Positions 7,277-64,000 of a DNA stretch of 64,000 nucleotides are shown here, piece after piece. The translations under genes and the position numbers were made by a program. The first letter of the stretch is position 1. Each line of letters starts with the position of its first letter. This DNA is from an uncultured Christensenella sp. (lineage in GTDB: Bacteria > Bacillota > Clostridia > Christensenellales > UBA1242): positions 1,734 to 65,733 of the forward strand of contig CAYVXW010000002.1 in NCBI GenBank assembly GCA_964455585.1, written 5' to 3'. The notes under the pieces are model-generated. The model was not told the DNA's origin and made no database searches. It saw only the letters and a program-made list of their open reading frames with translations.

Positions 7277-7305
7277 ATTTTCCCCCTCCTATAAAATTTG
7301 GATTT

Positions 7306-24081: not shown

Positions 24082-24087
24082 ATACAT

Positions 24088-24216
24088 ATCCATAAAGAGT
24101 GTGCGAGGGACAGCCCCGATGACCACACAGCAACCTGCGTCCCCCCGCAAGGTGCTAAAGGCTGACCGATGGGACTCATAATATACCTCACCCCATCGGT
24201 TTCGATGGGATTTTTT
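24088..24216 (+). promoter_or_regulatory. SAM riboswitch (S-box/SAM-I-like core) with terminator/antiterminator platform
   Basis: The core reads AAAGAG-TGTG-c-GAGGGA-caGCCCCGATGA-c-CACA-GCAACC-[tgcg-tcccccc-cgca]-aGGTGCTAAAgg. The terminator is CCCATCG-gttt-CGATGGG followed by T6 (24192-24216). The alternative 9-bp helix pairs ACCGATGGG (24165-24173) with CCCATCGGT (24192-24200). Confidence 0.75.
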
Positions 24217-24256
24217 GTTACTTTTTATGGAAATACAAACAAAAAAGAGAGAACTT

Positions 24257-48086: not shown

Positions 48087-48134
48087 TTAATTGCAATAAA
48101 TAATTGTAATTTACCTAATATATTATGCGTTTGA

Positions 48135-49073
48135 TTACACATTCAAAACCCAATGTCTTGGAGCAGTAGACCAAACACGCCCGTCAATCAAGTTTTCTTG
48201 AACGGCTTCAACCGCCTCGACTATTACTTGGATTTGACCATACTTTCCGCCATCGTCACAAGTAAAGTTTTTGCCAACAAGTTCTATTTCGGTAAAGAGT
48301 TCCACCCTTCCGTTGAAGCCCAACACACCATTGTAATAGTAGTAGCCGTCGTCTTCCGTAACGCCTCCACCCATAATGTCCTCCTCGTCCTCGGCATTGT
48401 ATCTATACCACATAGAGCCCACATTTGGACTGAGCAAGTCGTAGCGTTCCTCATAGCCCAATATTAGCACAACTTTGAACCTTACATATACGCTAGTTGG
48501 AGTGGAAGAGTTGTTTGAAAGCACATCACCACGATAGTCGTCGGAATTCCTAGCATAGGCTCTTAGTTGGATTATGTCCCCAGGGTTAAGTTCTCTTAAA
48601 ACTTCTTCGCCCGTTTCGGTAACCATACTAAGCGACGATTTGTTTTCTATCTTTAGGCTAACCCTAATATCCGAGAACCCCTCGTCCACGGCACCATTTC
48701 GCCCAATAAATATTACAAACACTATAAGAATGGCAATTACTACAAGCACAAGCAAAAGTGCTATTGCCACCTTCATATTTTTCTTAAATTCGCCACGAGA
48801 ACTAGGCTTTTTTGCTTTGGCAACAGTGCCAGCACCACCAGTGCTCTTTGGCGTATACGACCTGCCCGTTGCCCTATTTCTAAGCCTTTCTAGAGCCTCT
48901 CTTTCCAAGTCTCTTTCGGTTGGTTCGGGAGCGTCGTCAACTATTGCCGGACGGCGGTCTTTGTACGTCCCCGTCCTAGGCTTTGTTACGTCAATTCTCT
49001 TGTCGTTAGAGGTCGAAAAAGACGAACCATTTTCGTTTGGATTATTTGGGTTTTTGTTTTTGTTTTCGTCCAT
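48135..49073 (-). CDS. Membrane-anchored TasA-like protein with a ~100-aa disordered cytoplasmic N-terminus
   Basis: A Pro/Asn/Arg-rich N-terminus is followed by one TM helix (VAIALLLVLVVIAILIVFVIFI). The ectodomain carries NPGDIIQL, VYVRFK and VEAVEAVQ, motifs shared with the three downstream-family paralogs. AAAGGAG lies upstream of the ATG. Confidence 0.6.
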   Translation of the reverse strand: MDENKNKNPNNPNENGSSFSTSNDKRIDVTKPRTGTYKDRRPAIVDDAPEPTERDLEREALERLRNRATGRSYTPKSTGGAGTVAKAKKPSSRGEFKKNMKVAIALLLVLVVIAILIVFVIFIGRNGAVDEGFSDIRVSLKIENKSSLSMVTETGEEVLRELNPGDIIQLRAYARNSDDYRGDVLSNNSSTPTSVYVRFKVVLILGYEERYDLLSPNVGSMWYRYNAEDEEDIMGGGVTEDDGYYYYNGVLGFNGRVELFTEIELVGKNFTCDDGGKYGQIQVIVEAVEAVQENLIDGRVWSTAPRHWVLNV

Positions 49074-49160
49074 TTCCGAACTCCTTTTATCTATTTTTTT
49101 AGTTTAAACCAGTATTTTTGTATTTAATACAATAATCACCCTCTCATCACTTGGCGGTGT

Positions 49161-49513
49161 TGGTTTGCTTTTGGAAATAGCAACCCACCCCAAGTTTTTG
49201 TGCCGTCACAAGTATACACTATATAATGTGTCCTAATGTCTGACGACTATCCTCTTTTTTGCCGAATACGGTATGACACATTAGTTGATTATGTGTGTCA
49301 TATCGACTGGAGCAAGTGTAAACTTGCGGAACGGAGTATATCTATAAGGTTGACCACATAGATACACTCGGTTCGCTTACGCTCTCTCGGTATAACACAC
49401 GCAAGGCATAGCCTTGCAAAGTAATAAGTAAAAGCGAAGGGTAAATAGGTACAAATGGATAATCACATTGACACACTCAGTTGGAGCCAAAGTGCCTCTC
49501 TCGGTATAACACA
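49161..49513. repeat. Repeat-rich intergenic region A (modular, hairpin-forming)
   Basis: It shares at least three modules with 63144-63660; alignments are in the findings. Internal repeats are cggtatRacaca (49268, 49388, 49501) and a long hairpin at 49329-49374. Confidence 0.8.
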
Positions 49514-49548
49514 AATAGTGTGAGTGTTGTCACTATGCAACAGGTAGA

Positions 49549-50298
49549 CTAATCAACATCCCAATAAATGTCCTCATTTTCCCACCAAGGGCCTTTGCCC
49601 TTTTCGACAAGTGGGTCGGGTACGTTTTTGGTTTGGATTGCTTCTACTATATAATTTATATGAATTTTGCAATTTGCTTGTTTGTTGGTTATGGTTAGTT
49701 TATTAAGAACGATATATCCGTCAATAAAATCTAGTTTTTCGCCGTCATATGCAATCCTTGATTTCAAATTTCCCTCGGCGTCAACCATTCTTAGGACATA
49801 CCAATAATCCACCGGTTTTTTGTCGGGGTCACCTTCCCACTCCACAAACTCATAGAAGTCAACCTTTTCCCAAACATCTGGGTCGGGAGCATCAAGATAT
49901 TCTATTTGACCCAAATTTTTTAGGTCCTCGAGGGTAGAAATTTCCTTTGTTTCGATGTTTTCGTATTCAATTTGAAGTTTTACTCTAACATACGCAGGTG
50001 AGGATTCTACTTCGCCGTCGCCAAGTTGGGCACCAAGTTTTAACTTAATCCTATCCCCCGGATAAATACGGGTTTGGTAGTCTTTTAAAATATCCGTCGT
50101 TATTTTGCTATCCTCGGTAATAAAGATATTGACTGGATGCGACAAAATGATGTCGGCGGTGTCCGACCTTGTTCGTATATACCACGCAGCGGTGGACGAA
50201 ACCACAACCATCACAACTATTAATATAGATAGTGCAAGTATCACCAAATTTTGCGTTTGTATTCGTTTTTTATAATCTTTAAAACTTCTTTTTGGCAT
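49549..50298 (-). CDS. TasA/camelysin-like secreted protein (SipW-type signal), paralog 3
   Basis: The N-terminal anchor ends in SSTAAWYIR. Shared motifs are PGDRIKL, AYVRVK and YIVEAIQ. Confidence 0.7.
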   Translation of the reverse strand: MPKRSFKDYKKRIQTQNLVILALSILIVVMVVVSSTAAWYIRTRSDTADIILSHPVNIFITEDSKITTDILKDYQTRIYPGDRIKLKLGAQLGDGEVESSPAYVRVKLQIEYENIETKEISTLEDLKNLGQIEYLDAPDPDVWEKVDFYEFVEWEGDPDKKPVDYWYVLRMVDAEGNLKSRIAYDGEKLDFIDGYIVLNKLTITNKQANCKIHINYIVEAIQTKNVPDPLVEKGKGPWWENEDIYWDVD

Positions 50299-50332
50299 AA
50301 TTTTTCCTTTTCTATTCCATTTTATTTAGGGT

Positions 50333-51040
50333 TTAAAAATAGTCATTGCTATCGTGCTTTTTGTTCTCATCGGAGGACACAAAACTTTTGAATATTTCGG
50401 GCGACGATGTCCACTCGGCACTTGAAGCGCCATATTGCCTTTGAATTGCCTCAATTGTAATTCTAATGCTAACGGGTGAGCCCTTGACCGAATTATTTAG
50501 AGTATTGTCCACATAATATCCGTCATTAAATTGAGTTCCATTGTCGTCAAGATAGCCGATATAATAGTAATATCCGTCACTACCCAAAACCCACTTGTTT
50601 TGGTAGGTAGAAGAATATGTGCTTGGTGGGGACGACACTAGCCTACCGCTTGCAAAATGCAAACTAACTTCGGGCCTCTCAATTACATTGCCGTTTCCAT
50701 CCTTTCCGCCATCAATTTCGCACTTTATCCTAACATACGCACCATCTATATTGTGCTTTTCGCTAGTTTTTAGATATGTTTCAAACTTGTTGCCCGCTCT
50801 ATCCTCAATGTATGCAGTATCGGGAGCAAGGGCAAGATTTCTAAAACCAAAGTTATAGGTTACATCTAGGTCGATTGTTCCTACAACCATAACGGAAGAG
50901 TCGGGAGAAGATGTTGAACTTTTGTCTTCAAACCACGAAAGCGTTACGCCTGCGACACAGTACACAAAAGCCACAAGCAAAATAATTATAAGCGCCGTGA
51001 AATAAGCATAATTTAGTTTTGGCTTTTTTCTATACTCCAT
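50333..51040 (-). CDS. TasA/camelysin-like secreted protein (SipW-type signal), paralog 2
   Basis: The signal segment reads VAGVTLSWFEDKSS followed by VGTIDLDV; compare TasA GGGTWAAFND...SGTLDL. Other shared motifs are AYVRIK and ITIEAIQ. Confidence 0.75.
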   Translation of the reverse strand: MEYRKKPKLNYAYFTALIIILLVAFVYCVAGVTLSWFEDKSSTSSPDSSVMVVGTIDLDVTYNFGFRNLALAPDTAYIEDRAGNKFETYLKTSEKHNIDGAYVRIKCEIDGGKDGNGNVIERPEVSLHFASGRLVSSPPSTYSSTYQNKWVLGSDGYYYYIGYLDDNGTQFNDGYYVDNTLNNSVKGSPVSIRITIEAIQRQYGASSAEWTSSPEIFKSFVSSDENKKHDSNDYF

Positions 51041-51085
51041 TTTCTTCTCCCATTTTACTCACAAATTTTATAGTTTTGTGGATAA

Positions 51086-51964
51086 CTAATTTTTTAAATA
51101 ATTACTAGGTTGTTTCCACGCAAGCCATCCGCTATTTGGGTTTGCGGTCAAATCGCAAGGGATTGTAGCCCCAAACGGGAATGCATTTACGGGGATTTGG
51201 CTATCGCCACTAAACCCATCGGGCACTGTAAACTGTGACCAATTGACACTAAGAAGTGGGTTTGTGGATGGCACAGTTGTAATATAAGTAGAACCCGAGT
51301 GCGAGTTTTGATATTCATAAATCTTTTTGTAAATATTACCCGAATGGGAAATTGCGTCCACTGTAACCGCCACAAATATATTGTCACCTCGACATTCGCT
51401 AGGCACAGTTATTTTGGATATAATATCCACTTGCCCATCCGCATTGGTCTTGCCGTCAACAGTGTATGGCTCTAGCACTTTGTTTAGATACATTTCACCA
51501 CTGGCAACAACACCAAAATTCCTAAACCAACCAGCGGTGTCAAGATTAATACTTACTGCACCGGAGGTGGAATCTTTTTGAGGGGTGGTGTCAGTTACTA
51601 GATAGTTTATGTTCTCGGACTTATATACCCTAATTGAAACTCGAATTAGTGCATCAATGTCGCCTGTGTTTCTAACTTTTAGATTAAGTGAGCGAGTAGT
51701 ACCGCCCTTTGGAACCGAGTATGTGTGCTCGCACTTCCACACTCCATTTTGACTGTGCGATGTGGTGTGTGACACACTATTTCCATCCGCCACAATTGCC
51801 ACCGCAACCGTGCCCAGTTTTGTTCCCTCACTCTCGTACGGGTCGTCATTTCGCCACTTTAGCCACGCCAAAACCGTGCCGACAAGGGCGCAAGAAACAA
51901 GCACTACTATTGCTAGCATTGCCACAAAAGATATTATGTACTTATTTCTTTTTTTGCCTACCAT
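51086..51964 (-). CDS. TasA/camelysin-like secreted protein (SipW-type signal), paralog 1
   Basis: The signal segment reads LVGTVLAWLKW followed by LGTVAVAI. Other shared motifs are ALIRVSIRV and VTVDAIS. The ATG lies 6 nt after the signal-peptidase stop. Confidence 0.7.
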   Translation of the reverse strand: MVGKKRNKYIISFVAMLAIVVLVSCALVGTVLAWLKWRNDDPYESEGTKLGTVAVAIVADGNSVSHTTSHSQNGVWKCEHTYSVPKGGTTRSLNLKVRNTGDIDALIRVSIRVYKSENINYLVTDTTPQKDSTSGAVSINLDTAGWFRNFGVVASGEMYLNKVLEPYTVDGKTNADGQVDIISKITVPSECRGDNIFVAVTVDAISHSGNIYKKIYEYQNSHSGSTYITTVPSTNPLLSVNWSQFTVPDGFSGDSQIPVNAFPFGATIPCDLTANPNSGWLAWKQPSNYLKN

Positions 51965-51970
51965 ATCTTT

Positions 51971-52564
51971 CTATTCCTCGTCGTCGTTTTCGTAACACTC
52001 AATGTCGTCAACATACATTTTGTCTCTTATCCAGAACACTCCCCAAATAAAGATAACTAGTATTATTGCGTATGCAATAAGCATTGTTGTATTGCCCTTT
52101 ATGTACATTACAATATCGCCCATCCACGCAAAGCAGTGAGACTCATATACCACGCCCACAAGTTCTTCTTCGTAGAATGCGCCGTCTTTGGTGTCGGAGT
52201 TGTCGCCCTTGGTGTACCAATAGCCGTTCTCCCACTTATCCTCATCAAAACCCTCTTCACCGGGGTTTGGGATTATTGTGTTGTCATATACTTTTCCCTC
52301 AATTCTGTGGGTCAAATATATTCCGCCTTTGTTCATAGTAACAATATCGCCAAGTTCCAAATCTTCATAGTCCCTTGGTGTTACTATTATAAGACTTCCA
52401 ACCGGAAGCCTTGGTTCCATAGAACCCGAGGATACTATCATAAACTTATAGCCGATGACATATGCAAAAATTACCGTAATAACAAGTGCTATGCCAAACG
52501 CTCTAAGAAGTTTTCCTAGTAGCCCCTTGAAAAAGTTGTCTTTTTCTAATCTATAAAATCTCAT
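51971..52564 (-). CDS. sipW: Signal peptidase I of the SipW/archaeal-ER type
   Basis: Motifs are SSGSMEP (Ser nucleophile box), LTHRI (the His box of the Ser-His type) and TKGDNS, plus N- and C-terminal TM helices. Confidence 0.85.
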   Translation of the reverse strand: MRFYRLEKDNFFKGLLGKLLRAFGIALVITVIFAYVIGYKFMIVSSGSMEPRLPVGSLIIVTPRDYEDLELGDIVTMNKGGIYLTHRIEGKVYDNTIIPNPGEEGFDEDKWENGYWYTKGDNSDTKDGAFYEEELVGVVYESHCFAWMGDIVMYIKGNTTMLIAYAIILVIFIWGVFWIRDKMYVDDIECYENDDEE

Positions 52565-52625
52565 TACATTTCCTTTATCTATTATCTTGTTAGTTTTAAG
52601 TAGTAAACATATTAAAATTTGAGCC

Positions 52626-52648
52626 TCAAGGGAGAAAGTCTCCCTTGA
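52626..52648 (-). other. Stable 9-bp hairpin between the giant gene and sipW, with no clean U-tract
   Basis: The sequence is TCAAGGGAG-(5 nt)-CTCCCTTGA, 16 nt after the giant gene's stop. On the minus strand it is followed by ggctcaaatttt. Confidence 0.4.
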
Positions 52649-52663
52649 TACTCGTGTTTTGTT

Positions 52664-55600
52664 TTATTTGTGTCTTGGGTATGTGCCCGAAACATCATAT
52701 CCGCCATTTTCTTCCTTTTCCATAGTCGATTTTAGGTTGTCAAGTGCGGTATTTGTATTTCCGCCCGCCGAACTACCCTCAACAAGGGTACCAAATTCGC
52801 CCGATGCTAAGTTAAACGAATCTCCATTGAAGATGTAGTACGAGTTTGTAACTGTTGCAATACGAGAAATTGCATTAATGTCAAGTTGTTGGTGTACGGT
52901 GAATGTGTAATTTAGAACCACATAGCATTTTTCTACTGTTGCACTTCCGCCCGAACTTGCGGAAACTATTCCCGCAACGATAATGGAACTTGCATTCTCG
53001 CCCGAATTAGAAGTTGTGTGCTCAACCACAACTTTTGCAAGGGAATAGCAAGTAGAAATTGTTACATTTGTACCCGAGCCAACTTCGCACATAATTGCAC
53101 CAAGAACGCCCGACCTACTTTCAGTACTATCTTCTATTCCATCGTCGGTTACAGTAAGAACAACATTTTCGTCAACATAACATTTAGAAATTGTTATGTT
53201 GCTATTGGTGCCACCAACTACTTCCTCGGACATAACCACAATTCCGGCTACATAGTTTGCATAAATTTTGCCAACATAAAGTTCGCCCGTCGTATCAACA
53301 ATTGCACCAAAACTACAATTTTCGATTACCGAACCGCCACTTGTTTTGCCTACAATTCCGCCTGCTTTGGAGGTCTTGTTGGTCAAGGCTTCGATATTTA
53401 GTTTTGCTACAGAATTTTTGATTGTACCCATATTGGAAGCAACCACGCCACCAACCAAGATAGCAATTTGAGTTTTTACCTCAAGTACAATTTGGGCTTT
53501 CATACTCTTTGAGTAGTCGATATTGCTTGCACCCTCGTCTACCCTATTGCCGTTTTTGTCGGTTAGATATGGAAGAACATTTACGCTATCAAGTGTGCCA
53601 TAGTTTCTAATAGCAACGCCCGATACCATATATTCCGAAACATCACTACTGTTGGTGTAGTCGATATTTACTTGGAAGTTGGTGTTCCTAATTGTTCCAT
53701 AGTTGTCAAGAATGAATGACATATATGAAGTCTTGTCGTTCTCCTCCTTAACAGATGGGGTGATGTTGTAAATATAGTGATTGTCACCATCAATTACACC
53801 CGAGAAACTATCTATCATTGTCCAATTTGGATTGTAATTGGTTTGACCCATAGAAGAAGACTCAATCTTTATATCTTTTTCTAGTTTGTAATCGCTAGTT
53901 GGGTAAATTCTAATGTTATTTAGATTAGCGTAAGTAGCAATTGCATATGGAATGTATTCCGTGCCATTTCCGGATGCAAATAGCGTCATACTAACATCCG
54001 TCAAGTTTGGACGATAAGTGCCCGACTTGTATGCGCCCTTGTCGCTAGAAGCCGTGTCGTAAGCGGTAGTTGTAAGACCAAATGTATACTCGCTTGCAAC
54101 CGCCCTTAGTTGATAACTTGTTGGGGTTGGTTCGCCCTCGCCCGATTTTAGGATAATCAAATCTTTTACATAAATAGTAAATGTTTCGCCTTGGGTATAG
54201 TCGTAACTAATTCTTCTTTCCTCAACAGTATTGTCATCTAGATACTTGCTATCAAAATTACTATTTTTTGTAGTATTTTGGTCAAAGTCTGGAGTTGTGC
54301 CATTAAGTGGAGAAGTGATGTGTGCCGATTTTAACCAAGCGTTTAGAGCCTCGGCATCTAGGTTTTCTACCTTGTAGGTAGTTTCCAAAATGATATTGTA
54401 ACCGGTAGAAATATGGTCTTTGTTGGATAGCGTCCAAGAAAGTGTTCCAGTTGCACTATCATATTTTGCATCCACTGGTGCGGATGGAATAGATATGTCT
54501 AGTTTTGCGCTATAACTACTGCTTACAAATGCTCTATTGGTGCTAGTCTCGCCCAAGCCGTCGGTAGTTTCAATTGTTCCAATTGCTTGCACAAATGCAC
54601 AAATTTCGGAACCGCTTGAACTTAGTTTGCCAATAAGGTTGTTCATCTTGAATATCATTTCGTTATCATTTACTTCGGTAAACTCGTTGCTTGCCCAAGT
54701 CAAGCCTTCTTTAGTTTCAACATCCGACCTTTCTGGATATTTGATTTCTACAGTTGCCGTGCCATTTACGCCTTTGTAGATTGTGTAAATGTATTCAGAA
54801 TATGTGCCGTCGGAATTCTTTACATAGAACTTGACTCTATATCCCGAAGCGTTAGTTTGAAGTGGCCAATAAATTCTACTTTCTTGCGAAGCGGAAGTGT
54901 TTGCCACGTTCTTGAGTTCTGGAGTTTGCAACTTGGTGATATAGAACTCTTTGTTGCTACTTGCTAGATAGAACCTATCGCCATCCTTAATGCTATCGGT
55001 CGAGCCCTCAGTTCCACTATACTTAATAACAATATCGTGGTTGCCCGCGCCAAATGTTACGGTGTCGGCAGATGAATTGTAAGTTTGGAAGTTGTCCACA
55101 GTTAGTTCGGTAAAGTACTTGTACGAAAGAGTTGATGTGCTATCAATCGTTACACTGTTTCCGTCTATCTTTAGTTCAGGAAGAGTAACGGATTGACCTG
55201 CCGTCTTGTCCGCCTCGGTTCCCCAACCGAATACACCATCCTCAACTGTTGGCTCAGGGTCGGCAATTCTTGTAACTTCAAGACTTGCGGAGTACGAACT
55301 ATTTAGATATCCGGCATCAAATTTTGCAATAGCCTTTACTCTAATATTGGTTGTACCCAAAATGCCGTCATAAATCTTTGTTGTTGCAGTTGTGCTAGTA
55401 TCAATTTCTTTTTCTTTTGTGCCCCATTGATACGAAATGGCATATTTGCTTACATTGCCAGTGGTGTCGTTGGATTTTCCGTTCCACCATAGGTTGCCTT
55501 CTTTGTCAACTCCTAGCCCAGTAGGAATTGCAAGACGCAAGTAACTACCCGACCAAATCTTATTCTCCTCGTCCTCAACCTTGTGGGTCTTAACGGTGTC

Positions 55601-58600
55601 GGAATTAAAGTAATTCTTTGAGGTTACATATGTAGTTGCCCCGCCGTCTGCCGAAGGAACTTCGTCTAGCCTTGTTGCTATAATTTCTATGCTATACATA
55701 AAGCCACTTTCGTTTAGTGATGGGTCGTCTGGCATATCAAAATAGGTTTGGTTATAAACAATTGTTGATGTGTTGCACATTTCAGGGTTTGCATTGGCAT
55801 CGGCTCCTACGGCAATCTTTTTGATTGTGACAATGTATGCATTTGCAAATGGAACGGCGTTCCACTCAAACATACCCGCAGTGGCATCCGTCTTACCCAA
55901 CCAGTATGGCAAGCCGTCTTGTGTGGATTTTGCACTAGTTGTGCCAAGTTTGTAGGCGTATACAACTTCGGATATAGGGCTATCAACAACACCTCTGCCG
56001 TTTCCTATTTCTTGTTCGTAAATTGCATATCCGCCCTCGGTGAAGTTTAGGTTGTCCGAAAGGGTTATTTCGCCCGTTCTTTCGTCGTCCACTCCCGAGT
56101 TGATTTCTTTAACCATTCCCAAAAGGGCAGTTGCGTTATTCTTTACATAAGACTTAACTTCCGCTAGCCTATCCTCTTCAAACTCAAATTCATCAAATAC
56201 GCTATCGTCTTTTTGGTCGCTTTCGGCAAATTTAATTTCGGCAAGCAATAGTTTAGTAGCATCTAGTTCCGTCCAATTTTTGTTTGCGTTCTCTAGGCTT
56301 TCGGCTTTGTAAAGTGGTCCATAAACCTTGATAAGCGAACTAACCGAATTATCGTTTGGAGTCCACTTGAATGCACTTTCTTCCACGCTTGTTTCGCAAG
56401 TATGAAGGATTGTCATTGTGTCGCTAAACATATATGAGTTGCTATTTAGCAAGTAAACTGTATCGCTTCCGTCGGTTGCAGGTGTACTATCCTTTGTTCC
56501 CATTGCTAGGATGAATAGTCTATAGATTTTGTCAAGGTCAACCTTGGTTGTTTCGTTATAGAACATTTCCTTTACATCTTTTGAATACTTGTAGCCGTCG
56601 CCCACATTAGGGTCTTTGCTTTCGCCGTCTAGGTCACCAACCGTCACTTCGGCATAAGCCACGCTTTCGCTTCCGGCAGTGATAGCCGACAAATAGTAGT
56701 CTTTGTGATAAGTGAATGGGTCTTCGTCCCCAGTTGCACCTTGATTTGCAATAATGGATAGTTCCCATAATGCTTTGCCTTTACTAATATCGTTTACGGT
56801 GTATTTAGGTGCACTTGGGTCGCCACTAGTTGGATTGTCCTCACCATCTAGTTCGTCGTCCAAAGTCATAATTTCTTCGTTTTCATCGTCACCAGTGTTA
56901 TCCTCTTCCACTAGAACTTTGTCATACCAACTCTTTGGAGTGGTTAGTTTGTAGGTTTTTAATGTTCCCGACTCAATGCCGTTTAGGACATTGTCGCCAC
57001 CAACTGCACTAATGCTAATGTCATAGTAGCCGGCGGTATACTGAATGCCCGCAGAGTTGGTTACCGTATTCGACACATCGTCACTATCGACATCGTAAGT
57101 GGTAGAAACCGAAACATCGTACAAGAACTCAAATTTGGCAACCGAACTACCACTTTCTACAACCTCTCCTTGTGAGTTAAGAAGCCTTACTTCGCTAGGA
57201 GTATCTATTGTTTCAACGCCATTGATGTTTAGTCTAATTTTGTAGAAGTGTTCGGTAAAGATACCGTCAAATGTAGAGTTATCTGACTCGCCATTGAGTG
57301 CCATATCTTTTATGTAGTCATAGAAAGTAGTATAATCTATAGTGCCCTTTTGGCTACCCGCAATTTCGGTAACCACTTGGACTCTAGCCTCTTCGCCGGC
57401 GTCCTCGCCTCCGCCCTCGCTAAACTCTACACCGTCTAGATATTTAAGCATTTCGGTGGTTGAAATTGTCCACGAAAGTTTTCCTTCTTTTACCTTGTAG
57501 GTGCCTAGCATACTAGGTCTATATGCTTTTGTAGAAGAATCGCTTTGAGCCAAAGACGATATCATTGCAAGTTTTGGATTGGTAATTGCGGTAACCGAAA
57601 TATCCCAATATCCGCCATTCAAAGTGCCAATTTTGCTAGCATACTCCGAAGCATTAAAGTTTATATCCGAACCATTTTTATAGATTATTACGATATTCTT
57701 CCCATCGGTAATTGCAATTTTGTAAGTCACTGCCGATGGCAATGCACTCCAAGCAAGTTTTCCGTTGGAAACCGATGGTGTGGTGCTATTTGCAATATAT
57801 TCCACTTTACAATCGTTGGTCACAAGTGAATAGTCGCTATATAGCAATCCAAATGATTGGCTTTCATTTCCCATAGCCATCATTCTTATGTCGTACTTTC
57901 CAACCTCTACATCGTTTGTTAGTTCGTAGTATTGCTTATTGTCGGTGCTTGATAGTTTTGCTTCTTTGATTTCTTTGCCACTTTGGTCAAAGAACACAAG
58001 TTTTAATTCATATCCCGTTTTGTCTTTGTTTGGGTTGTCCCAATTTAATATAGGCTTTCCAACACCGTTTCCGCTTTCGTCATATAGTTGCATATTAAGA
58101 GCGGTAGGAGCCATAAGTTTTTTGAACCTAAACTCGCTAGATAGTTCGCTACATAGCATACCCGTTTTTTGAGTGATGATGCTAATCTTGTAGGTCTCGC
58201 CCGCAACATATGCAAATGTAGTTTCGCCCGTTTCGGACTCATCGTCCCCACTTGCAAAAACTTTTACATCGCTAATGCCGTCGCCCTCGGAAATAACCGC
58301 AGGCAAGGTGATGTCGCCGTCGCCCGAGTAATTGAACGACACAACCAATTGATTTAGATTGTTTCTAATTTGAACAAAGTAACTTCCGCCCTCAACTGCA
58401 GATGCCCATACAAGGCTTCCGTCTTTTGATTGGATAGACAATACTTTTTCGGATTTTGCAAATGTATATACGGTTGACTCTTCCGAACTTAGAACCTTTC
58501 CGCCATTTCCAATAAACATAATTGTGGTGCCATAGGTGCCATTTTCGTCGTAGCCCTCTAGCCCCCTTATGTCAATTTCGTATACTCCGCCGTCAATTGT

Positions 58601-61600
58601 TGCAAATGCACTATACTCGCCAAATGGAATTTCTTTAACAATGGCCTCTACCGAAGTGTCGATTTCGATTGTTGGGTCGCCCTCCTCGCCTTCAACACTG
58701 GTTACGGTCTTGTATTTGTTGATTGTAATCCTTACGCTTGTTGGCTCAAAGCCTTCAAATGTTTCGTAGTAGCCATATGCAAACTTTCCACTATTCGACA
58801 CTGTTACTAGGTCGGTAGACGCAGTTGCAAGTTTGACAACTTGTACACTAGCACTATTGCCATCTAGATATGGGTCGCTAGATGTGAGTGTTTTTATTTT
58901 GAATGTATGCCTGCCTGCATCCAATGCGTCTATCGCATAAACAAATTTGTTTATTGAACTATCGTAAACAAAATCGGTAGATTGAGTATATGTGCCCTCG
59001 CCATCCACATCTTTATAGATTGAACAAGTATAATCGTTGCCACTCTTTTCTACTTTTAGTTTTGTTGTGGTGGATTCGTCAAGCACAATTTCAAACATTG
59101 AAACCCCACTAACATATGCCCATTGCAACTTTTCGTTTACCATAGTTATGTCGCTAGCCTCACCAACCTTGGTAAGCCTCTTTACTCCCGACATACTGCT
59201 TGAAATGCATCCATCAAGCACTGCCCTTATGGTTAGGTCAAAGTCGCCTGCAGGTAGCCCATAGAAATCAACGCCATAATCAAATGCAACGTTATCTATT
59301 TCGTAGTTGTTTCCAATGCTGGAAATTAGGTTTCCGTCCTTATATAGTTTGAATGTCAAGCCTTGGTTAGGGCTTGTGTCGTCCTCGCTTGCTTTGTATT
59401 CAAAGGTTGCTCTTCCGTTTTGGGCTTTAATTTCTCCAACGGTAGGAAGTTTTGTAATTGATACTTCTTTTTCGTTTTCTGCTAGCCAAATTCCAGTAGA
59501 AACAAAGTCAACCGAAGTTTGGATTTTTATATCATAAACACCGGCGTCCATTTCGGCAAACGACAAATATTTTTCGCCCGACAAGGTTTGGATATCCTCG
59601 TCCGAAACGGCACTGCCGTATTCGCCATTCGATGTTAGTTTATAATAAATTGCGTATGTAATTCCGTCGTCATAAGTCCACACAACACCCTCGGCGTCAC
59701 TGCTTACTCTAGCACCCACACGCCCGTCTCTTACTTTGATTTCGATAGATGGGTTATTTGTGCCCGTAGCAACCGACGAACTATCCAAAATGTATGGATT
59801 TTCGCTACTAACGCCACTGGTTTGACTATTTTCGCCACCAGCCACAATTGTTATTGTATAATCGCCAACTTCTAGTCCGCTAGGCAACTCATACTCGGTG
59901 CCATCAACTGTTTTTGGGGTCTCGCCGTCAAATATTGCCTCAGAGCAAATAAGGGTGTATTCGGAGCACTTATTTACACTTGACCAAGTAATCTTTGGTG
60001 TGGTTCCGCTTGCGTTTCTTGAAACGTTTACGGTTGTCAAGACTGTGGCATATATTTTGTCGCTAGCCGTGCTTGCAAAGTAATTTGGATGAGTTTCCCA
60101 AATTTCCATTGCAACCGTCTTTCCCTCATAGTCGCTCAAAACGCTTCTAATATTTAGTTTGTAGCCCCTGCCGTCTTCATTTGTGGTGCCACTTGAATAT
60201 GCTACCGATTTTTGTGCAACCCTAGTGCTATCAACATAGAAGTTTATAACATAGGTAATTCCGCTAACGGTTGAGGTTGACGACCAAGATAGTTCGCCCG
60301 AAGGGCTCATTTTAAGCCCCGTTGCCACTCCCGAGCGATTGAACGAACTGCTAACTTTTACTGAGTCAATAATTCCCGCAACGCCCGAACTTGATGGACT
60401 GCCTATTACATAAGCCTCAATGTTTATTTGTTCGCCACTAATGTAGTCGATTAGTTTGTTGGTGCTATCTTTGCAATTTAGTTGGGTTAAGTCAATTGTA
60501 ACCTTTCCGCCACTAACCGAGCCTCTTGTCTCTTCCGAAACAACATCGCCACTAGGGGTCTTTAGGATAACAACATATGTTTCGCCAACTTTGTTAAATA
60601 CAAGTTTTGTCGAATCCTCAAGGGTCATATTGGTAATTGAACTTCTTCTATTGAAGTTTACATTGCTTGAGCCCGATGAGGAAATAATTGCATTTGAACC
60701 CGACAATGATGTATTGTCATTTTTGTCGGTAATGATAGAGTAGTAGAATACATCACCCGCACTCAAATATCCATCTATTTCTTCCGTCTCAATGCCCACG
60801 ATTTCTTTTGACGCTTGTCTAGATAATAAAACTCTGACAACATCAAACAAACTAAAGGTGTATTTGCCACTTACTTTGGTTAGCGGAACAACCCCGTCCT
60901 CTAGGTCGCCACCGTCTTTTAGGCTAACCTCTTGGGCGTTTCCGTTTTTGGAAAGTCTAATGGTGTAGTTCTTTATTTCCTCGGCACTACCACCATTTTG
61001 ATATGACACAGGCGCAAACGAAATTGTGCCGTTTGAAGAAATTTGAGTAGCCGTTGTGTCTTTTAGGACTTGGCAAGTATAAACTGGATTTTTGGAAACC
61101 TCGGTTGCCGTCAATGTGTTTGCACTTTCTCCAAAGTCACCCACCATTTTTGCATAAATTTGATAGTTGCCCGCACTTAGCCCTGCTTTGCTAATATCGC
61201 ACGATGCGGTCTCGCTAAATACATATTTTGAAAGGTCCAAGTTCTCGGTGTTGACAAAGAAGAACTCAATACCCTTTATTCCATTTGCTCCGCCAACAGT
61301 TATTATGTTGTTGCTAATGCTATGCGAAACAACTGGGTTGTCGCCAGGGATTTCGCCCGAGGCGTTGTCGGCGTTATAGATTTTTCCTAGTCTAGTATAG
61401 AAAAGGTTTTCCCATTCGCCTGCAATTGTTCTTTCGCTATTTCCTACAAGCCTTACATAAACAATTTTTCCCGCCGTAATATCTACTTCCGGCTCGCTTG
61501 TAATAAACACGGTGATAGTGGTTGTTTTGTCGCCAAGAACCAATTGTCCAGTTTTACTTGGAGAAATTTCCTTTAGCCTATCGGAAGAAAGTTCGTTTGA

Positions 61601-62920
61601 CGCAACAAAGTATTGATATCTAACCTCGTCTGACTTGGTCACTCCAACATCGTTGCCCTCAAGTTTTAGAACGGTCTTTAGGTTTACGTCCTCAAACTTC
61701 TTTCCGCCTATGATAAACGAACCAGTCTTGTTTTCAAGTGAAATGGTTGGTTTGCCCAATTTTTTAAACGATGCAACCCCGCTTCTTTCGGATGGATAGA
61801 ACCTAACGCCGTCTTCGGTGGAGTAGCCCGTCGCATTATCAAAACCTCTTGGCTTTGCAACAACGCTCACATTATATTCGTCTAGGTTCTCAAGATTGCT
61901 ATACTTAATTGCACTATCGCCACGATATTCATAATTACCCATTTCGGTAATTAGTCCGCTATTAGAACTTGTTTTTGTAACGGTTTTGTTTCCGCCATAA
62001 GTTATTTCGGATGTTACCGAATACTTAGGGGATGTAAATGAAATTTCGCCGTTGCTTACGCTTAGGTCTTTTACGGCTTCAAGTTGGCAAAACATAAATT
62101 CTTTGCTATCCGCACTTGTAAATACGTCTTCGTCGTTTCCTAGTGCCTTGACTTTTAGTTTGTATATCTTGCCCGCTTCAAAGCCTGCCTCTTCGGCGGT
62201 AATTTTGTTTGTAGAAACGCTTACGGTCTTTTTGGAGTTCTCAACCTCGCCTAGAACCGCTTTTCTATCGCCTTGCTCTGTTACAACGCTATATTCCATT
62301 TCCCAAACGGAAACGCTATATCCCGTAAGCCCCTTTGCAACCTTGTCCGCTCCACTGCCAACTGTTGGGTTTGCGTCTTGAAGAGTGTTTGATTGCCAAA
62401 CTTTGGTTACATTGTTCCAACTAACCTCTTTGCTATCTGTGCTATACTCAAATAGTGATGGTGCATCAAGGGTAGGGATTTTTGCTTTTTCCTTTTTTAC
62501 CTTAACATTTGCTTTTGCAATTTTGCCAGTAGTCTTGGTCGTGAAAGTAATAACGGTTGAACCAACATTCTTGGCGGTAAAACTAACCGTCTCTACCGCA
62601 CCCTTTGAATATGAGAATGTAGATGTGGAAAGAACGCCACTGTTGTCCGAGAATTCCCAGTCGACTTGTGTGGTAGTTACGTTGGACGGGGTGAGCGTGT
62701 ACTCCAAACTAAACCTATCCCCTTTGTAACACTCAATGGTTAGGTAGCCACTATTTTCGTCCTTTTCGTATTTTATGTTTTCGCTTGGGTTTACGCATCT
62801 AATGCTAATCCCCGTCTCTGCCACGGGCGAAAATTCTCCGCTCGAGCACGAACACGCCGACATAAATGCCGAAGCAAGTACCATAATAATTCCCGTTATA
62901 AACATTTTAGCCTTTTTCAT
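52664..62920 (-). CDS. Giant surface lipoprotein (3,418 aa) with many Fn3/Ig-like modules and a C-terminal GLUG-like beta-helix
   Basis: The start is MKKAKMF (ATG 62920, AAAGGTG upstream) and the lipobox is AFMSAC. More than 12 modules begin with x-L-x-W and end ...Y-x-[IV], for example GELSWSS..ITYVINF, KITWSSV..EYTLI, KLQWAYV..MFEIV and GKLAWSAL..VTYKIAI. The last ~430 aa carry repeated GG[IV][VA]G ... [IV]xNC units. Confidence 0.9.
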   Translation of the reverse strand: MKKAKMFITGIIMVLASAFMSACSCSSGEFSPVAETGISIRCVNPSENIKYEKDENSGYLTIECYKGDRFSLEYTLTPSNVTTTQVDWEFSDNSGVLSTSTFSYSKGAVETVSFTAKNVGSTVITFTTKTTGKIAKANVKVKKEKAKIPTLDAPSLFEYSTDSKEVSWNNVTKVWQSNTLQDANPTVGSGADKVAKGLTGYSVSVWEMEYSVVTEQGDRKAVLGEVENSKKTVSVSTNKITAEEAGFEAGKIYKLKVKALGNDEDVFTSADSKEFMFCQLEAVKDLSVSNGEISFTSPKYSVTSEITYGGNKTVTKTSSNSGLITEMGNYEYRGDSAIKYSNLENLDEYNVSVVAKPRGFDNATGYSTEDGVRFYPSERSGVASFKKLGKPTISLENKTGSFIIGGKKFEDVNLKTVLKLEGNDVGVTKSDEVRYQYFVASNELSSDRLKEISPSKTGQLVLGDKTTTITVFITSEPEVDITAGKIVYVRLVGNSERTIAGEWENLFYTRLGKIYNADNASGEIPGDNPVVSHSISNNIITVGGANGIKGIEFFFVNTENLDLSKYVFSETASCDISKAGLSAGNYQIYAKMVGDFGESANTLTATEVSKNPVYTCQVLKDTTATQISSNGTISFAPVSYQNGGSAEEIKNYTIRLSKNGNAQEVSLKDGGDLEDGVVPLTKVSGKYTFSLFDVVRVLLSRQASKEIVGIETEEIDGYLSAGDVFYYSIITDKNDNTSLSGSNAIISSSGSSNVNFNRRSSITNMTLEDSTKLVFNKVGETYVVILKTPSGDVVSEETRGSVSGGKVTIDLTQLNCKDSTNKLIDYISGEQINIEAYVIGSPSSSGVAGIIDSVKVSSSFNRSGVATGLKMSPSGELSWSSTSTVSGITYVINFYVDSTRVAQKSVAYSSGTTNEDGRGYKLNIRSVLSDYEGKTVAMEIWETHPNYFASTASDKIYATVLTTVNVSRNASGTTPKITWSSVNKCSEYTLICSEAIFDGETPKTVDGTEYELPSGLEVGDYTITIVAGGENSQTSGVSSENPYILDSSSVATGTNNPSIEIKVRDGRVGARVSSDAEGVVWTYDDGITYAIYYKLTSNGEYGSAVSDEDIQTLSGEKYLSFAEMDAGVYDIKIQTSVDFVSTGIWLAENEKEVSITKLPTVGEIKAQNGRATFEYKASEDDTSPNQGLTFKLYKDGNLISSIGNNYEIDNVAFDYGVDFYGLPAGDFDLTIRAVLDGCISSSMSGVKRLTKVGEASDITMVNEKLQWAYVSGVSMFEIVLDESTTTKLKVEKSGNDYTCSIYKDVDGEGTYTQSTDFVYDSSINKFVYAIDALDAGRHTFKIKTLTSSDPYLDGNSASVQVVKLATASTDLVTVSNSGKFAYGYYETFEGFEPTSVRITINKYKTVTSVEGEEGDPTIEIDTSVEAIVKEIPFGEYSAFATIDGGVYEIDIRGLEGYDENGTYGTTIMFIGNGGKVLSSEESTVYTFAKSEKVLSIQSKDGSLVWASAVEGGSYFVQIRNNLNQLVVSFNYSGDGDITLPAVISEGDGISDVKVFASGDDESETGETTFAYVAGETYKISIITQKTGMLCSELSSEFRFKKLMAPTALNMQLYDESGNGVGKPILNWDNPNKDKTGYELKLVFFDQSGKEIKEAKLSSTDNKQYYELTNDVEVGKYDIRMMAMGNESQSFGLLYSDYSLVTNDCKVEYIANSTTPSVSNGKLAWSALPSAVTYKIAITDGKNIVIIYKNGSDINFNASEYASKIGTLNGGYWDISVTAITNPKLAMISSLAQSDSSTKAYRPSMLGTYKVKEGKLSWTISTTEMLKYLDGVEFSEGGGEDAGEEARVQVVTEIAGSQKGTIDYTTFYDYIKDMALNGESDNSTFDGIFTEHFYKIRLNINGVETIDTPSEVRLLNSQGEVVESGSSVAKFEFLYDVSVSTTYDVDSDDVSNTVTNSAGIQYTAGYYDISISAVGGDNVLNGIESGTLKTYKLTTPKSWYDKVLVEEDNTGDDENEEIMTLDDELDGEDNPTSGDPSAPKYTVNDISKGKALWELSIIANQGATGDEDPFTYHKDYYLSAITAGSESVAYAEVTVGDLDGESKDPNVGDGYKYSKDVKEMFYNETTKVDLDKIYRLFILAMGTKDSTPATDGSDTVYLLNSNSYMFSDTMTILHTCETSVEESAFKWTPNDNSVSSLIKVYGPLYKAESLENANKNWTELDATKLLLAEIKFAESDQKDDSVFDEFEFEEDRLAEVKSYVKNNATALLGMVKEINSGVDDERTGEITLSDNLNFTEGGYAIYEQEIGNGRGVVDSPISEVVYAYKLGTTSAKSTQDGLPYWLGKTDATAGMFEWNAVPFANAYIVTIKKIAVGADANANPEMCNTSTIVYNQTYFDMPDDPSLNESGFMYSIEIIATRLDEVPSADGGATTYVTSKNYFNSDTVKTHKVEDEENKIWSGSYLRLAIPTGLGVDKEGNLWWNGKSNDTTGNVSKYAISYQWGTKEKEIDTSTTATTKIYDGILGTTNIRVKAIAKFDAGYLNSSYSASLEVTRIADPEPTVEDGVFGWGTEADKTAGQSVTLPELKIDGNSVTIDSTSTLSYKYFTELTVDNFQTYNSSADTVTFGAGNHDIVIKYSGTEGSTDSIKDGDRFYLASSNKEFYITKLQTPELKNVANTSASQESRIYWPLQTNASGYRVKFYVKNSDGTYSEYIYTIYKGVNGTATVEIKYPERSDVETKEGLTWASNEFTEVNDNEMIFKMNNLIGKLSSSGSEICAFVQAIGTIETTDGLGETSTNRAFVSSSYSAKLDISIPSAPVDAKYDSATGTLSWTLSNKDHISTGYNIILETTYKVENLDAEALNAWLKSAHITSPLNGTTPDFDQNTTKNSNFDSKYLDDNTVEERRISYDYTQGETFTIYVKDLIILKSGEGEPTPTSYQLRAVASEYTFGLTTTAYDTASSDKGAYKSGTYRPNLTDVSMTLFASGNGTEYIPYAIATYANLNNIRIYPTSDYKLEKDIKIESSSMGQTNYNPNWTMIDSFSGVIDGDNHYIYNITPSVKEENDKTSYMSFILDNYGTIRNTNFQVNIDYTNSSDVSEYMVSGVAIRNYGTLDSVNVLPYLTDKNGNRVDEGASNIDYSKSMKAQIVLEVKTQIAILVGGVVASNMGTIKNSVAKLNIEALTNKTSKAGGIVGKTSGGSVIENCSFGAIVDTTGELYVGKIYANYVAGIVVMSEEVVGGTNSNITISKCYVDENVVLTVTDDGIEDSTESRSGVLGAIMCEVGSGTNVTISTCYSLAKVVVEHTTSNSGENASSIIVAGIVSASSGGSATVEKCYVVLNYTFTVHQQLDINAISRIATVTNSYYIFNGDSFNLASGEFGTLVEGSSAGGNTNTALDNLKSTMEKEENGGYDVSGTYPRHK

Positions 62921-62985
62921 TTCTACACCTTTAGTCATTTTATTTAAAGTCTTTGTGGGGAGTCGCCCCACCTTTCTCTTGAGTT

Positions 62986-62994
62986 ATTTTAGCA
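62986..62994 (-). promoter_or_regulatory. Extended -10 box TGCTAAAAT upstream of the giant lipoprotein gene
   Basis: The minus strand reads TGcTAAAAT about 65 nt upstream of ATG 62920. The leader contains the hairpin GTGGGG-cgact-CCCCAC. Confidence 0.35.
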
Positions 62995-63143
62995 CATTTT
63001 GTCGCAAACTTAAAAACGATTTTGCTATGTATTTATATTTTTAACAAAAAATATATTATTTATTATTATCTTCTTTGTACCCGCTTTTCGCTCAATATTC
63101 TTCCGCTTTCGCGTTTAGAATGACAAATAAGGATGATTGAAAG

Positions 63144-63660
63144 TAGATACACTCCGCTCGTGCTATCGCACTCGGTCGGTATGACACACGCAAGACATAG
63201 CCTTGCAAGTGAAGAGGTGAAGAGTAAATAGTGAAGAGGTGCAAGTGGATGAATTTTAGTCTATGTCATTCTGAGCGGGCTTTAGCCCCGAAGAATCTAA
63301 AACGTGGAGCGAGGCAATTCGTGTCATATCGACCGAACTGGTGCCAACCAGTGAGCGGAGCATATCTATACAAATCTAACCGCTTGTCCACCTCTCCACT
63401 ATTCACTCTTCACTATCACCTGTGGCAACTTTTTCGCCACCCGTGTCATATCGTATTCGACCGCAAGGGAGAATCGCCGTCACCCACTAGGACACATTAT
63501 GTAGTGTACACTTGTGACGGCACAAAGACTTGGTAGTTTGCTATTCCATAAAACAAACAGCCACTGATAAGTGTCGAACGGAGCATATCTATAAAGATAA
63601 CTCGCCTGTTTGCTTCCTTGCTTTTGGGTAGCAAACTTCTTGCTATGGGTAGTTTCCCCC
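63144..63660. repeat. Repeat-rich intergenic region B (modular, homologous to region A)
   Basis: It shares modules with 49161-49513 in both direct and inverted orientation. It also holds internal inverted repeats (63144-63159 vs 63353-63368; 63531-63560 vs 63606-63640) and a GC hairpin gtcattctgagcGGGCTttaGCCCcgaagaatc. Confidence 0.8.
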
Positions 63661-63700
63661 TGTCACTATGGCGGATTTTCGTCGTTTTACACTTTCACAA

Positions 63701-63729
63701 TTGACAACATACAAAAAAACGGATATACT
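63701..63729 (+). promoter_or_regulatory. Candidate sigma-A promoter for the right-edge gene
   Basis: The layout is TTGACA (63701-63706), N17, TATACT (63724-63729). Confidence 0.5.
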
Positions 63730-63752
63730 TTTTTTAATTAAAGGAGAGAAAA

Positions 63753-64000
63753 ATGTCGAAAAAGAAAAAAATAATAATTTCAAGCATTGTGGCGTTTGTG
63801 TTGCTAGCGGGGATTGTAACCACCCTAGTGCTAGTTTTTGTAAAGCGATTTAGTAACTACACCGACGCCAAAATAGACTACAACACCCATACCGAAATGA
63901 CCTATACCGACTATGAGACCACCTACAAAGAACACTCAGCGGTCACCTATTCAAACGGCACACAAATAATAAAGAACAACTCAAACGAATTTGGCATATA
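63753..64000 (+). CDS. N-terminally anchored protein; only the 5' fragment is present because it runs off the right edge
   Basis: The ORF is not in the track. AAGGAGAG lies 5 nt upstream of ATG 63753. Hand translation gives MSKKKKIIISSIVAFVLLAGIVTTLVLVFVKRFSNYTDAKIDYNTHTEMTYTDYETTYKEH..., with no stop to the window end. Confidence 0.6.
   Translation, partial: MSKKKKIIISSIVAFVLLAGIVTTLVLVFVKRFSNYTDAKIDYNTHTEMTYTDYETTYKEHSAVTYSNGTQIIKNNSNEFGI

Follow-up and report, generated by a model that had tools for sequence, protein, structure and literature searches.

Two repeat-bearing spacers of a Christensenella fibre locus and a family of hairpin units found beside small GIY-YIG nuclease genes

We describe here two intergenic spacers, A and B, within a 64-kb stretch of DNA from an uncultured Christensenella sp. 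(contig CAYVXW010000002.1; all 64,000 nucleotides analysed are referred to below as ‘the window’), along with the family of short hairpin repeats, or ‘units’, to which their short modules belong. Both spacers lie 5' of minus-strand genes in a single fibre locus (Table 1), itself part of a block (45618-63752) that holds an 822-aa transglutaminase-like gene, a 312-aa gene, three TasA-like genes, a gene for SipW and that of a giant surface protein, or adhesin. TIGR02228 identifies the 197-aa protein encoded here as a signal peptidase of the SipW type (56 bits, above cut-off), and the TasA-like label of the three neighbouring genes is a weak hint only (TIGR04090, E 1e-3). No Pfam match was obtained for the giant surface protein, the start of which is most likely the ATG at 62920, served by an AAAGGTG ribosome-binding site.

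Two homologous spacers in a variable fibre locus

Each spacer was compared by blastn with the whole 64-kb window, which returned two significant cross-matches: an inverted one of 118 nt (49163-49279 vs 63558-63443, 79.7% identity, E 6e-23), with a core of 65 nt at 86% by repeat search, and a direct one of 107 nt (49359-49460 vs 63144-63250, 75.7% identity, E 1e-13). The initial annotation of this DNA had described the two regions as homologous, modular and hairpin-rich, a description that the blastn matches and the structure of the units bear out, with module coordinates that prove right to within a few bases. What it had called direct module 1 is the 107-nt match; direct module 2 is equally real, corresponding to the units U1 and U5 (49295-49346 and 63321-63370), as are its partial copies at 63443 and 63579-63593; and the inverted module, estimated by eye at ~75 nt and ~85% identity, turns out to be longer, at 118 nt and 79.7%. 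The inverted pairs are also confirmed, at 49329-49350/49353-49374 and at 63144-63187/63321-63368. Only the extent of spacer B needs correction: a repeat region is indeed present but, given the likely start of the adhesin at 62920, the spacer itself runs from 62921 to 63752, and the repeats take up only 63142-63593 of it. No further copy of any shared module was found elsewhere in the 64 kb, be it by blastn, by repeat search or with the unit model introduced below.

Smaller matches lie within each spacer; blastn detects an inverted match in spacer B (63217-63256 vs 63413-63372, 81% over 42 nt), and, in the U3 region of spacer A, an exact 18-nt repeat of 49382-49399. The repeat-bearing portion of spacer A (49139-49548) begins right after a stop codon and ends before an AT-rich 65 nt. 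The non-repeat remainder of spacer B comprises an AT-rich, adhesin-proximal stretch and the strong promoter of the plus-strand gene; this promoter-like site lies outside the repeats and forms their right-hand limit.

Table 1. Positions of the genes, spacers, units and related features in the window and in other loci
Feature	Position	Strand	Composition or context	Evidence or remarks
312-aa gene	48135-49073	-	downstream of spacer A	
Spacer A	49074-49548		475 nt, between 249-aa gene and 312-aa gene	
Long composite unit, copy A	49161-49279	-	L end GTGTCATACCGTA (49279-49267), hairpin-rich interior CGTCAC...GTGACGG, R end degenerate	inverted match to 63443-63558
U1 hairpin unit	49295-49346	+	GTGTCATATCGAC-[GCAAGT gtaa ACTTGC]-CGGAGTATATCTA	pattern matches; fold; R1 49298-49343, 16.6 bits
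U2 hairpin unit	49357-49398	-		R1 49360-49397, 26.2 bits, E 0.004; blastn to units in L091, L066, L059
M1-A extension module	49399-49462		hairpin GCAAGGC-ata-GCCTTGC (49401-49417)	part of direct 107-nt match
U3 degenerate unit	49470-49512	-	L end GTGTTATACCGAG intact, R end decayed to GAGTGTGTCAA	L motif, 18-nt repeat
249-aa gene	49549-50298	-	upstream of spacer A	
Giant surface protein (adhesin) gene	52664-62920	-	downstream of spacer B	3419 aa from ATG 62920, the most likely start
Spacer B	62921-63752		between giant surface protein gene (-) and + strand gene starting 63753	
U4 hairpin unit	63142-63187	-	two tandem G.A motifs, bulged C	R1 63145-63186, 34.5 bits, E 1e-4; best R1 match in window; blastn matches to units in L014, L016, L009, L013
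M1-B extension module	63188-63256		hairpin GCAAGAC-ata-GCCTTGC; purine-rich stretch with GTGAAGAGGTG twice	direct match to 49399-49460
V1 variant unit	63264-63298	+	TGTCATTCTGAGCGGGC ttta GCCCCGAAGAATCT; outer stem ATTCT/AGAAT	R1 13.9 bits; generalised scan
U5 hairpin unit	63321-63370	+	GTGTCATATCGAC-CGA-[ACTGGT gcca ACCAGT]-GAGCGGAGCATATCTA	R1 63322-63367, 29.1 bits, E 0.001; fold
Inverted copy of M1-B purine-rich part	63372-63413			blastn to 63217-63256
Long composite unit, copy B	63443-63593	+	L end 63443-63455, R end 63579-63593, ~125 nt of other hairpins between	interior hairpins GCCGTCAC...GTGACGGC, 63476-63521
Promoter-like site for + strand gene at 63753	63701-63729	+	TTGACA-17-TATACT	11/12 matches
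82-nt nested composites, other loci	L083:3544-3625, L092:5774-5855, L107:2530-2611			
82-nt nested composites, other loci	L071:1741-1822, L044:1192-1273, L067:11883-11964			
P0159, GIY-YIG locus			between HTH (helix-turn-helix) gene and flavodoxin gene	unit 21 nt before ATG, inverted unit over stop codon; 33-35 bits
P0232, GIY-YIG locus			between MBOAT and PMT-type genes	TGTCATTCTGAGCGTAGCGAAGAATCT 16 nt before ATG; inverted ATCCT variant and two units after stop
P0155, GIY-YIG locus			between gyrB and gyrA	inverted pair of ATTCC/ATTGC variants, both sides; R1 only 13.4 bits
P0190, GIY-YIG locus			after SDF-family transporter gene	ATTCT/ATCCT variant arrays downstream; copy number differs between samples

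Several smaller features of the mosaic may be recorded at this point. The purine-rich, GTGAAGAGGTG-bearing stretch of spacer B and its inverted copy flank V1 and U5, with no function suggested, and its counterpart in spacer A (49420-49460) has lost the GTGAAGAGGTG repeat. The hairpin of the M1-A module received a weak terminator-like flag (49418-49400, minus strand; poor T run) in a terminator scan. A 101-aa ORF (open reading frame) with a GTG start (63231-63536, plus strand) falls wholly inside the repeat mosaic and is most likely spurious.

Comparison with relatives sets the spacers in context. By its SecA homologues the window belongs with uncultured Clostridia, Clostridiales and Christensenellales MAGs (metagenome-assembled genomes) being among their sources. 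The same gene order is found in L005 (SecA 96% identical in amino acids; secA DNA 85.6%, fibre genes ~79%), where just 63 nt, with no unit, separate the 248-aa and 312-aa genes; the AT-rich 65 nt of the window’s spacer A is the counterpart of this entire spacer. A further set, L138-L141 (SecA 96%), has a 266-nt spacer A with one decayed unit, the orientation of which relative to the genes is opposite to that of window U2. With four to five units in the 475 nt of the window, the unit content at this position thus varies among relatives from none, through one inverted, to four or five. In L138 the contig carries only 49 nt upstream of the adhesin start, which is compatible with a repeat at the position of spacer B and proves nothing. 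Gene orientation is the same in three lineages, and GC content is flat across the block. The adhesin itself evolves fast: its C-terminus shares 58% amino acid identity with that of L005, and its N-terminal 600 aa, used as a query, gave one unrelated match at 28%. The fibre-plus-transglutaminase block is absent beside secA in L001 and L142 (93-94% SecA identity) and in L002-L004 (89%). By these comparisons the block (45618-63752), present at 96% SecA identity and absent at 89-94%, is a strain- or species-variable surface-structure island; it is larger than the 14 kb bracketed by the repeats, and does not have its ends at the bracket.

Anatomy and distribution of the hairpin units

The unit is a strand-specific hairpin of 28-57 nt, made up of a TGTCAT head (present in all units), an outer stem (ATAY/RTAT), a G.A/A.G loop, an inner stem and an ATCT end. 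Its L end reads GTGTCATAYCGA(C/G) and its R end (C/G)GAGYRTATCTA, with a variable stem-loop in between. The outer stem, of 4-5 bp, covaries: ATAC is found with GTAT and ATAT with ATAT, and elsewhere ATTCT with AGAAT, ATCCT with AGGAT and ATTGC with GCAAT. Inward of it come a C-G pair with a 1-nt bulge opposite, and then an invariant 5'-GA/3'-AG tandem mismatch; the inner stem is variable, often carries a second tandem G.A motif (about a fifth of units, and U2, U4 and U5 of the window) and mostly closes on a GNA triloop. The five short units of the window have conserved ends and inner stems that all differ (GCAAGT/ACTTGC, ACTGGT/ACCAGT, GTGC/GCAC, GC/GC). Opposed orientations are seen for U1/U2, which face each other via their R ends at a distance of 10 nt, and for U4/V1-U5; V1 has the variant form TGTCATTCTGAGCG...CGAAGAATCT, and long unit B also obeys the pairing rule (L ATAT, R ATAT). 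A reading of the C-GA/GA-G loop as a K-turn was rejected on inspection of the motif, the bulge being of 1 nt and not 3.

It is covariation, and not stability, that bears this structure. Among 145 distinct units from other genomes, the L-end Y and the R-end R, both left free by the search patterns, occur as C-G in 130, T-A in 12, T-G in two and C-A in one, and one-mismatch variants show double changes (ATTC with GAAT, ATGC with GCAT). For 32 metagenome units of 34 nt, taken with the structure ....(((((..(((((...)))))..).)))).. and compared with 500 shuffles, 86.9% of cells are paired (68.5% in shuffles), seven of the ten pairs show changes on both sides, and the covariation score of 0.387 (0.106 in shuffles) was reached by none of the 500; controls in which the structure was slid all scored far lower than observed. 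When 106 distinct sequences are aligned to the model, 91.6% vs 75.6% are paired. Folds of single sequences, by contrast with this signal, are not more stable than those of shuffled ones (z -0.3 to -1.9).

Units with a clean inner stem have triloops in 70 of 86 cases, 54 of these being GNA, and a C-G pair closes the loop in 64 of the 86. Both C-GNA-G triloops and tandem G.A pairs of the sheared type are well known from very stable DNA hairpins, and structured RNAs favour GNRA or UNCG tetraloops. On account of its GNA triloops and tandem G.A mismatches, we infer that the unit would fold on single-stranded DNA, and, since it is asymmetric and its complement would carry C/T mismatches, that one strand only is meaningful.

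Membership of the window modules in this family was assessed with R1, a covariance model built from metagenome units only, with no window sequence, and run unfiltered on both strands. Five matches in the 64 kb rise above noise, all in the two spacers (U4, U5, U2, U1 and V1), with the next best at 9.5 and 9.0 bits; the window modules are therefore members of the family, confined within the 64 kb to the two spacers. The degenerate U3 was not found by R1 at E up to 10.

Elsewhere, a pattern scan of species-representative genomes gave 11 loci, nine of them in Clostridia MAGs: one Pumilibacteraceae MAG has units on three different contigs, and other carriers include Candidatus Scatosoma, a roe-deer caecum MAG and a Hadza gut MAG. 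Matches in Shewanella (L007) and Geobacter (L010), which are without the central hairpin, were taken as chance. One well-formed unit was also seen on a contig titled as an uncultured Prevotellaceae MAG (L017); either the family extends beyond Clostridia or this contig is mis-binned. At least 120 gut and rumen metagenome contigs carry the unit by pattern scan, and R1 finds 153 matches at E < 0.01 in 674 kb of harvested loci. Neighbours no more than 150 nt apart are opposed in orientation in 30 of 34 cases. Units are for the most part extragenic, and 48% of them fall inside long six-frame ORFs, though such ORFs cover 92% of bases. Many of the neighbourhoods are unrelated to fibre genes, for example gyrB/gyrA, phosphoenolpyruvate carboxykinase/flavodoxin and MBOAT/PMT.

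Six loci hold a nested composite of 82 nt, in which an inverted 34-nt unit occupies exactly the apical loop of a larger one; the outer stem covaries, as does a further GCA...TGC stem that lies outside TGTCAT/ATCTA. These composites give a precedent for the long unit of the window. No fetched locus matches the interior of that long unit or the 65-nt module 1 extension (49399-49462 / 63188-63253), M1-A having its one counterpart in spacer B.

A phage or plasmid origin was rejected, for want of any match in the corresponding collections: the unit pattern is absent from 2.9 million viral contigs, and neither spacer B nor the long module has a match in phage and plasmid collections. Rfam 15 holds no match to the spacers at gathering scores and only noise at E up to 10, and no description of the family was found in the open full-text literature, searched with the unit sequences and with GIY-YIG plus repeat terms.

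Two features lie apart from these matters. The sole window match above an Rfam gathering score is an S-adenosylmethionine (SAM) riboswitch (RF00162, 52.9 bits; 24087-24175, plus strand), directly upstream of the S-adenosylmethionine synthetase gene (24215-25378). A second giant ORF (2-7288, minus strand; at least 2425 aa) runs off the left end of the window, and has a signal-peptide-like N-terminus (MKKTMIFTLILMPLIVLG...), internal repeats (1351-1402 / 3121-3172) and no hairpin units upstream.

Small GIY-YIG nuclease genes beside the units

A 94-aa ORF lying between two identical unit pairs in L016 encodes a GIY-YIG domain protein (PF01541, E 1.7e-15). Proteins of this kind, of ~95 aa, are stand-alone minimal domains with no DNA-binding extension. 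The harvested loci, amounting to ~1 Mb, contain six such ORFs, five of which have adjoining units: L016, L009, L021 and L060 have units at no more than 80 nt on both sides (random-placement P 1e-4 to 0.011), and L041 has a pattern unit downstream only (P 0.05), together with an R1 match just upstream (1809-1842). Because the harvested loci had been preselected for units, a reciprocal test was made with four homologues chosen by protein search alone (P0159, P0232, P0155 and P0190; Table 1), and units were found beside all four, in one case weakly.

The recurring layout is that of unit, gene and inverted unit, with the unit subtype the same on both sides of a given GIY-YIG gene and different between gene lineages. 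Variants of the V1 type also flank GIY-YIG genes in L163 and L173-L177. We further observed a 95-aa GIY-YIG gene (1501-1788 in L143) with inverted units on both sides, at gyrB/gyrA, on ten contigs from different samples (L143-L152), and, downstream of the GIY-YIG gene in L173-L178, arrays of 23-55-nt variant units (GTCATTCTGAGC..., GTCATCCTGAGCGG...), the copy number of which varies between samples whose GIY-YIG protein is identical; these samples also differ in the neighbouring genes downstream. Most close GIY-YIG homologues (P0123-P0241) sit on contigs of 0.5-1.5 kb, as expected of genes flanked by repeats, which suggests that short-read assemblies are routinely broken by the repeats on either side.

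Among solved structures the nearest are those of uncharacterised UPF0213 proteins (PDB 1YWL and 1ZG2), at a weak E of 0.06-0.13. Stand-alone minimal prokaryotic GIY-YIG proteins have been grouped with the Slx1 lineage in a phylogenomic survey that mentions neither repeats nor a function for them (PMC1564403), and eukaryotic Slx1 is a structure-selective nuclease of branched and hairpin-like DNA (PMC6902002). The likeness of our proteins to the Slx1 lineage and UPF0213 lies in the minimal ~95-aa domain, and structure-specific cutting of the Slx1 type would fit a hairpin substrate; set against this, the similarity to the UPF0213 structures is weak, and no association with repeats is described for those proteins (PMC1564403).

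Origin of the two spacers and meaning of the family

Among systems known from Proteobacteria, repetitive extragenic palindromic (REP) sequences, together with the bacterial interspersed mosaic elements (BIMEs) and REPINs, are accompanied by REP-associated tyrosine (RAYT) transposases of the Y1, IS200/IS605-like type (PMC2817692, PMC3116915, PMC3733652). Our units share with them the character of short (20-50 nt), imperfect, extragenic palindromes that occur in many copies, in mosaics of alternating orientation, and that have strand-specific features and a conserved unpaired head; they share also a small nuclease-type gene that is flanked by inverted copies, usually at one site per genome. Across metagenomes and MAGs we find these traits in the units: short imperfect palindromes in many copies, depleted in long ORFs and gathered in clusters whose members alternate. 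The differences are several: the head is TGTCAT here and GTAG or CGTC in REPs (PMC3733652); inner stems here vary widely between copies, around mismatch loops that are invariant; the flanked gene encodes a ~95-aa GIY-YIG protein in place of a Y1 transposase, though no dedicated Y1 search of the loci was made; and the hosts are Clostridia, with mobility proposed from sequence.

The initial annotation had likened the spacers to modular BOX-type mosaics, which is apt in kind. BOX elements of Streptococcus pneumoniae are built from boxA, boxB and boxC blocks of 45-59 nt in a fixed A-Bn-C order, and we know of no nuclease gene associated with them and of no sequence relation to our units. The likeness is by modularity only (modular intergenic repeats of a Gram-positive host, variable in module order and number, with predicted stem-loops), whereas the basic unit here is a single hairpin with covarying stems.

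Synthesising these observations, we consider it probable that the two spacers are BIME-like mosaics of selfish, REP-like hairpin repeats, with some local copying, and that their bracketing of the fibre genes is incidental. The units would be DNA of a selfish or neutral kind, folding on one strand in single-stranded form, and a GIY-YIG nuclease whose gene lies at another place in the genome would multiply them in trans, through nicking at the hairpin and repair-mediated copying, or through insertion beside or into existing units; such nuclease-driven copying or insertion would explain clustering, alternation and the nested forms. The two spacers may then have become sinks, tolerant of extra DNA, one of them after a stop codon and the other between divergent promoters, with lineage-specific composite modules being copied from one to the other. 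Local copying between the two is real. Any effect on the fibre genes would be a by-product, with extra hairpins in the operon transcript serving, in the manner of REPs, to stabilise the RNA or to terminate it partially; by this analogy, partial termination or RNA stabilisation by units in the fibre operon is possible.

Spread by a trans-acting GIY-YIG nuclease is, we infer, the most economical reading of the gene association. More tentatively, the hairpin units and the ~95-aa GIY-YIG genes that they flank may form a nuclease-plus-miniature-repeat system convergent with REP-RAYT, whose nuclease would recognise the single-stranded DNA hairpin and multiply it; this is a suggestion that we hold as possible, and to which we would not yet commit ourselves.

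A number of observations weigh against this overall account. The window contains no GIY-YIG gene, and the GIY-YIG ORF of L120 has no unit nearby. No clean insertion of a single unit with a target or footprint, and no pair of empty and filled sites, was seen among the fetched loci, and the indels between samples are changes in copy number inside arrays, which could also arise by slippage or recombination. Folding as DNA is preferred over RNA solely from the kinds of loop and mismatch. Both long modules occurred in the two spacers and nowhere else, and part of the spacer similarity is therefore a private duplication and not a matter of family membership. Finally, the presence of both window clusters in one locus could be meaningful, although this is a post hoc argument.

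The alternative that survives best, and which we nevertheless think unlikely, reverses the roles, such that the units are targets: a free-standing, homing-type GIY-YIG gene would insert into pre-existing functional hairpins of the host, and its association with units would be uninformative as to how these spread. The position of GIY-YIG genes between complete units, with each protein at one conserved site per lineage, is in keeping with this, as is the fact that units far outnumber GIY-YIG genes. However, unit number and orientation vary between close relatives, the subtype matches on both sides of the gene and differs between lineages, as for a coupled pair, and position and strand indicate no host function.

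It is quite unlikely, too, that the spacers hold a shared structured RNA through which the 312-aa gene and the adhesin are regulated together, whether as cis-regulatory leaders or as small RNAs. Both spacers do lie 5' of minus-strand genes of one locus, and covariation in hairpins is also shown by RNA elements. Against this, units occur on both strands within each spacer, and the long module, read against the genes downstream, has the sense orientation in one spacer and the antisense orientation in the other; the loops are mostly GNA triloops and not tetraloops of the RNA type; single-sequence folds are no more stable than shuffles (the z range given above); and relatives that carry the same genes lack the units or have them inverted. 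The initial annotation had entertained shared regulatory DNA or RNA, and a role of this kind dedicated to the fibre locus is not supported, given that the short modules sit at many unrelated loci in other Clostridia; the Rfam search that it had proposed was run, and gave no relevant family for either spacer, even at E up to 10.

The biologically most attractive alternative is an inverton, in which U4 and U5 (63142-63187, minus strand; 63321-63370, plus strand) are the inverted repeats of an invertible 133-bp segment, flipped by a recombinase so as to switch the fibre operon. An inverted pair does bracket a short segment 5' of the surface protein gene, much as inverted repeats surround segments of 100-200 bp upstream of surface protein genes in gut-bacterial invertons, and gut Firmicutes and Bacteroidetes commonly have phase switches upstream of their surface proteins. 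We regard this as very unlikely all the same: the arms belong to a dispersed family whose orientation alternates everywhere (30/34), next to unrelated genes as well; their identity is ~75%, their inner stems differ and their exact runs do not exceed 8 nt; a promoter scan of 63188-63320 gave no promoter-like site on either strand; and gene orientation is the same in three lineages, with no alternative orientation seen. Neither is there a recombinase, or a nearby invertase gene, among the 25 Pfam families listed, of 33 found (43 ORFs at 213-41718), or in direct scans of the genes at 42.5-52.6 kb, although the recombinases of invertons are often encoded far away.

Least probable of all is that the inverted ~118-nt copies are borders of a mobile, duplicated or invertible 14-kb cassette (adhesin, SipW and three TasA-like genes) or a substrate for its recombination, as the initial annotation had considered for 49.5-63.0 kb: inverted copies do flank 49.3-63.4 kb and lie nowhere else in the window or fetched loci, and the fibre region is absent beside secA in relatives at 93-94% SecA identity, but the variable block also holds the 312-aa and transglutaminase genes, outside the bracket, L005 has the same gene block with its 63-nt, repeat-free spacer A, the short modules are dispersed in other Clostridia, 80% identity with indels makes a poor substrate for homologous recombination, GC content is flat, and no integrase or transposase was seen in the Pfam families listed (25 of 33) or in the scans at 42.5-52.6 kb. 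With the short modules scattered at unrelated loci, the very circumstance under which the initial annotation would have the flanking arrangement coincidental, we read it as most likely incidental.

The symmetry around the fibre genes is thus most likely repeat clutter, and annotating it as a switch or as the ends of a cassette would call for evidence at the level of reads. The hairpin-repeat family is absent from Rfam 15 and from the full-text literature searched, and is abundant in gut and rumen Clostridia, where it probably breaks short-read assemblies, as judged from the many GIY-YIG homologues on contigs of 0.5-1.5 kb and from the L138 contig, which ends 49 nt before the adhesin. The instance in the window is ordinary repeat clutter, and it is the family, with its nuclease association, that is the interesting part. 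GIY-YIG genes set between inverted units suggest a second, independent solution to the REP-RAYT ‘lifestyle’; if true, such a convergent system would give a function to the widespread bacterial GIY-YIG proteins of the Slx1-like/UPF0213 type, and would add a new class of enzyme to the mobility of hairpin repeats.

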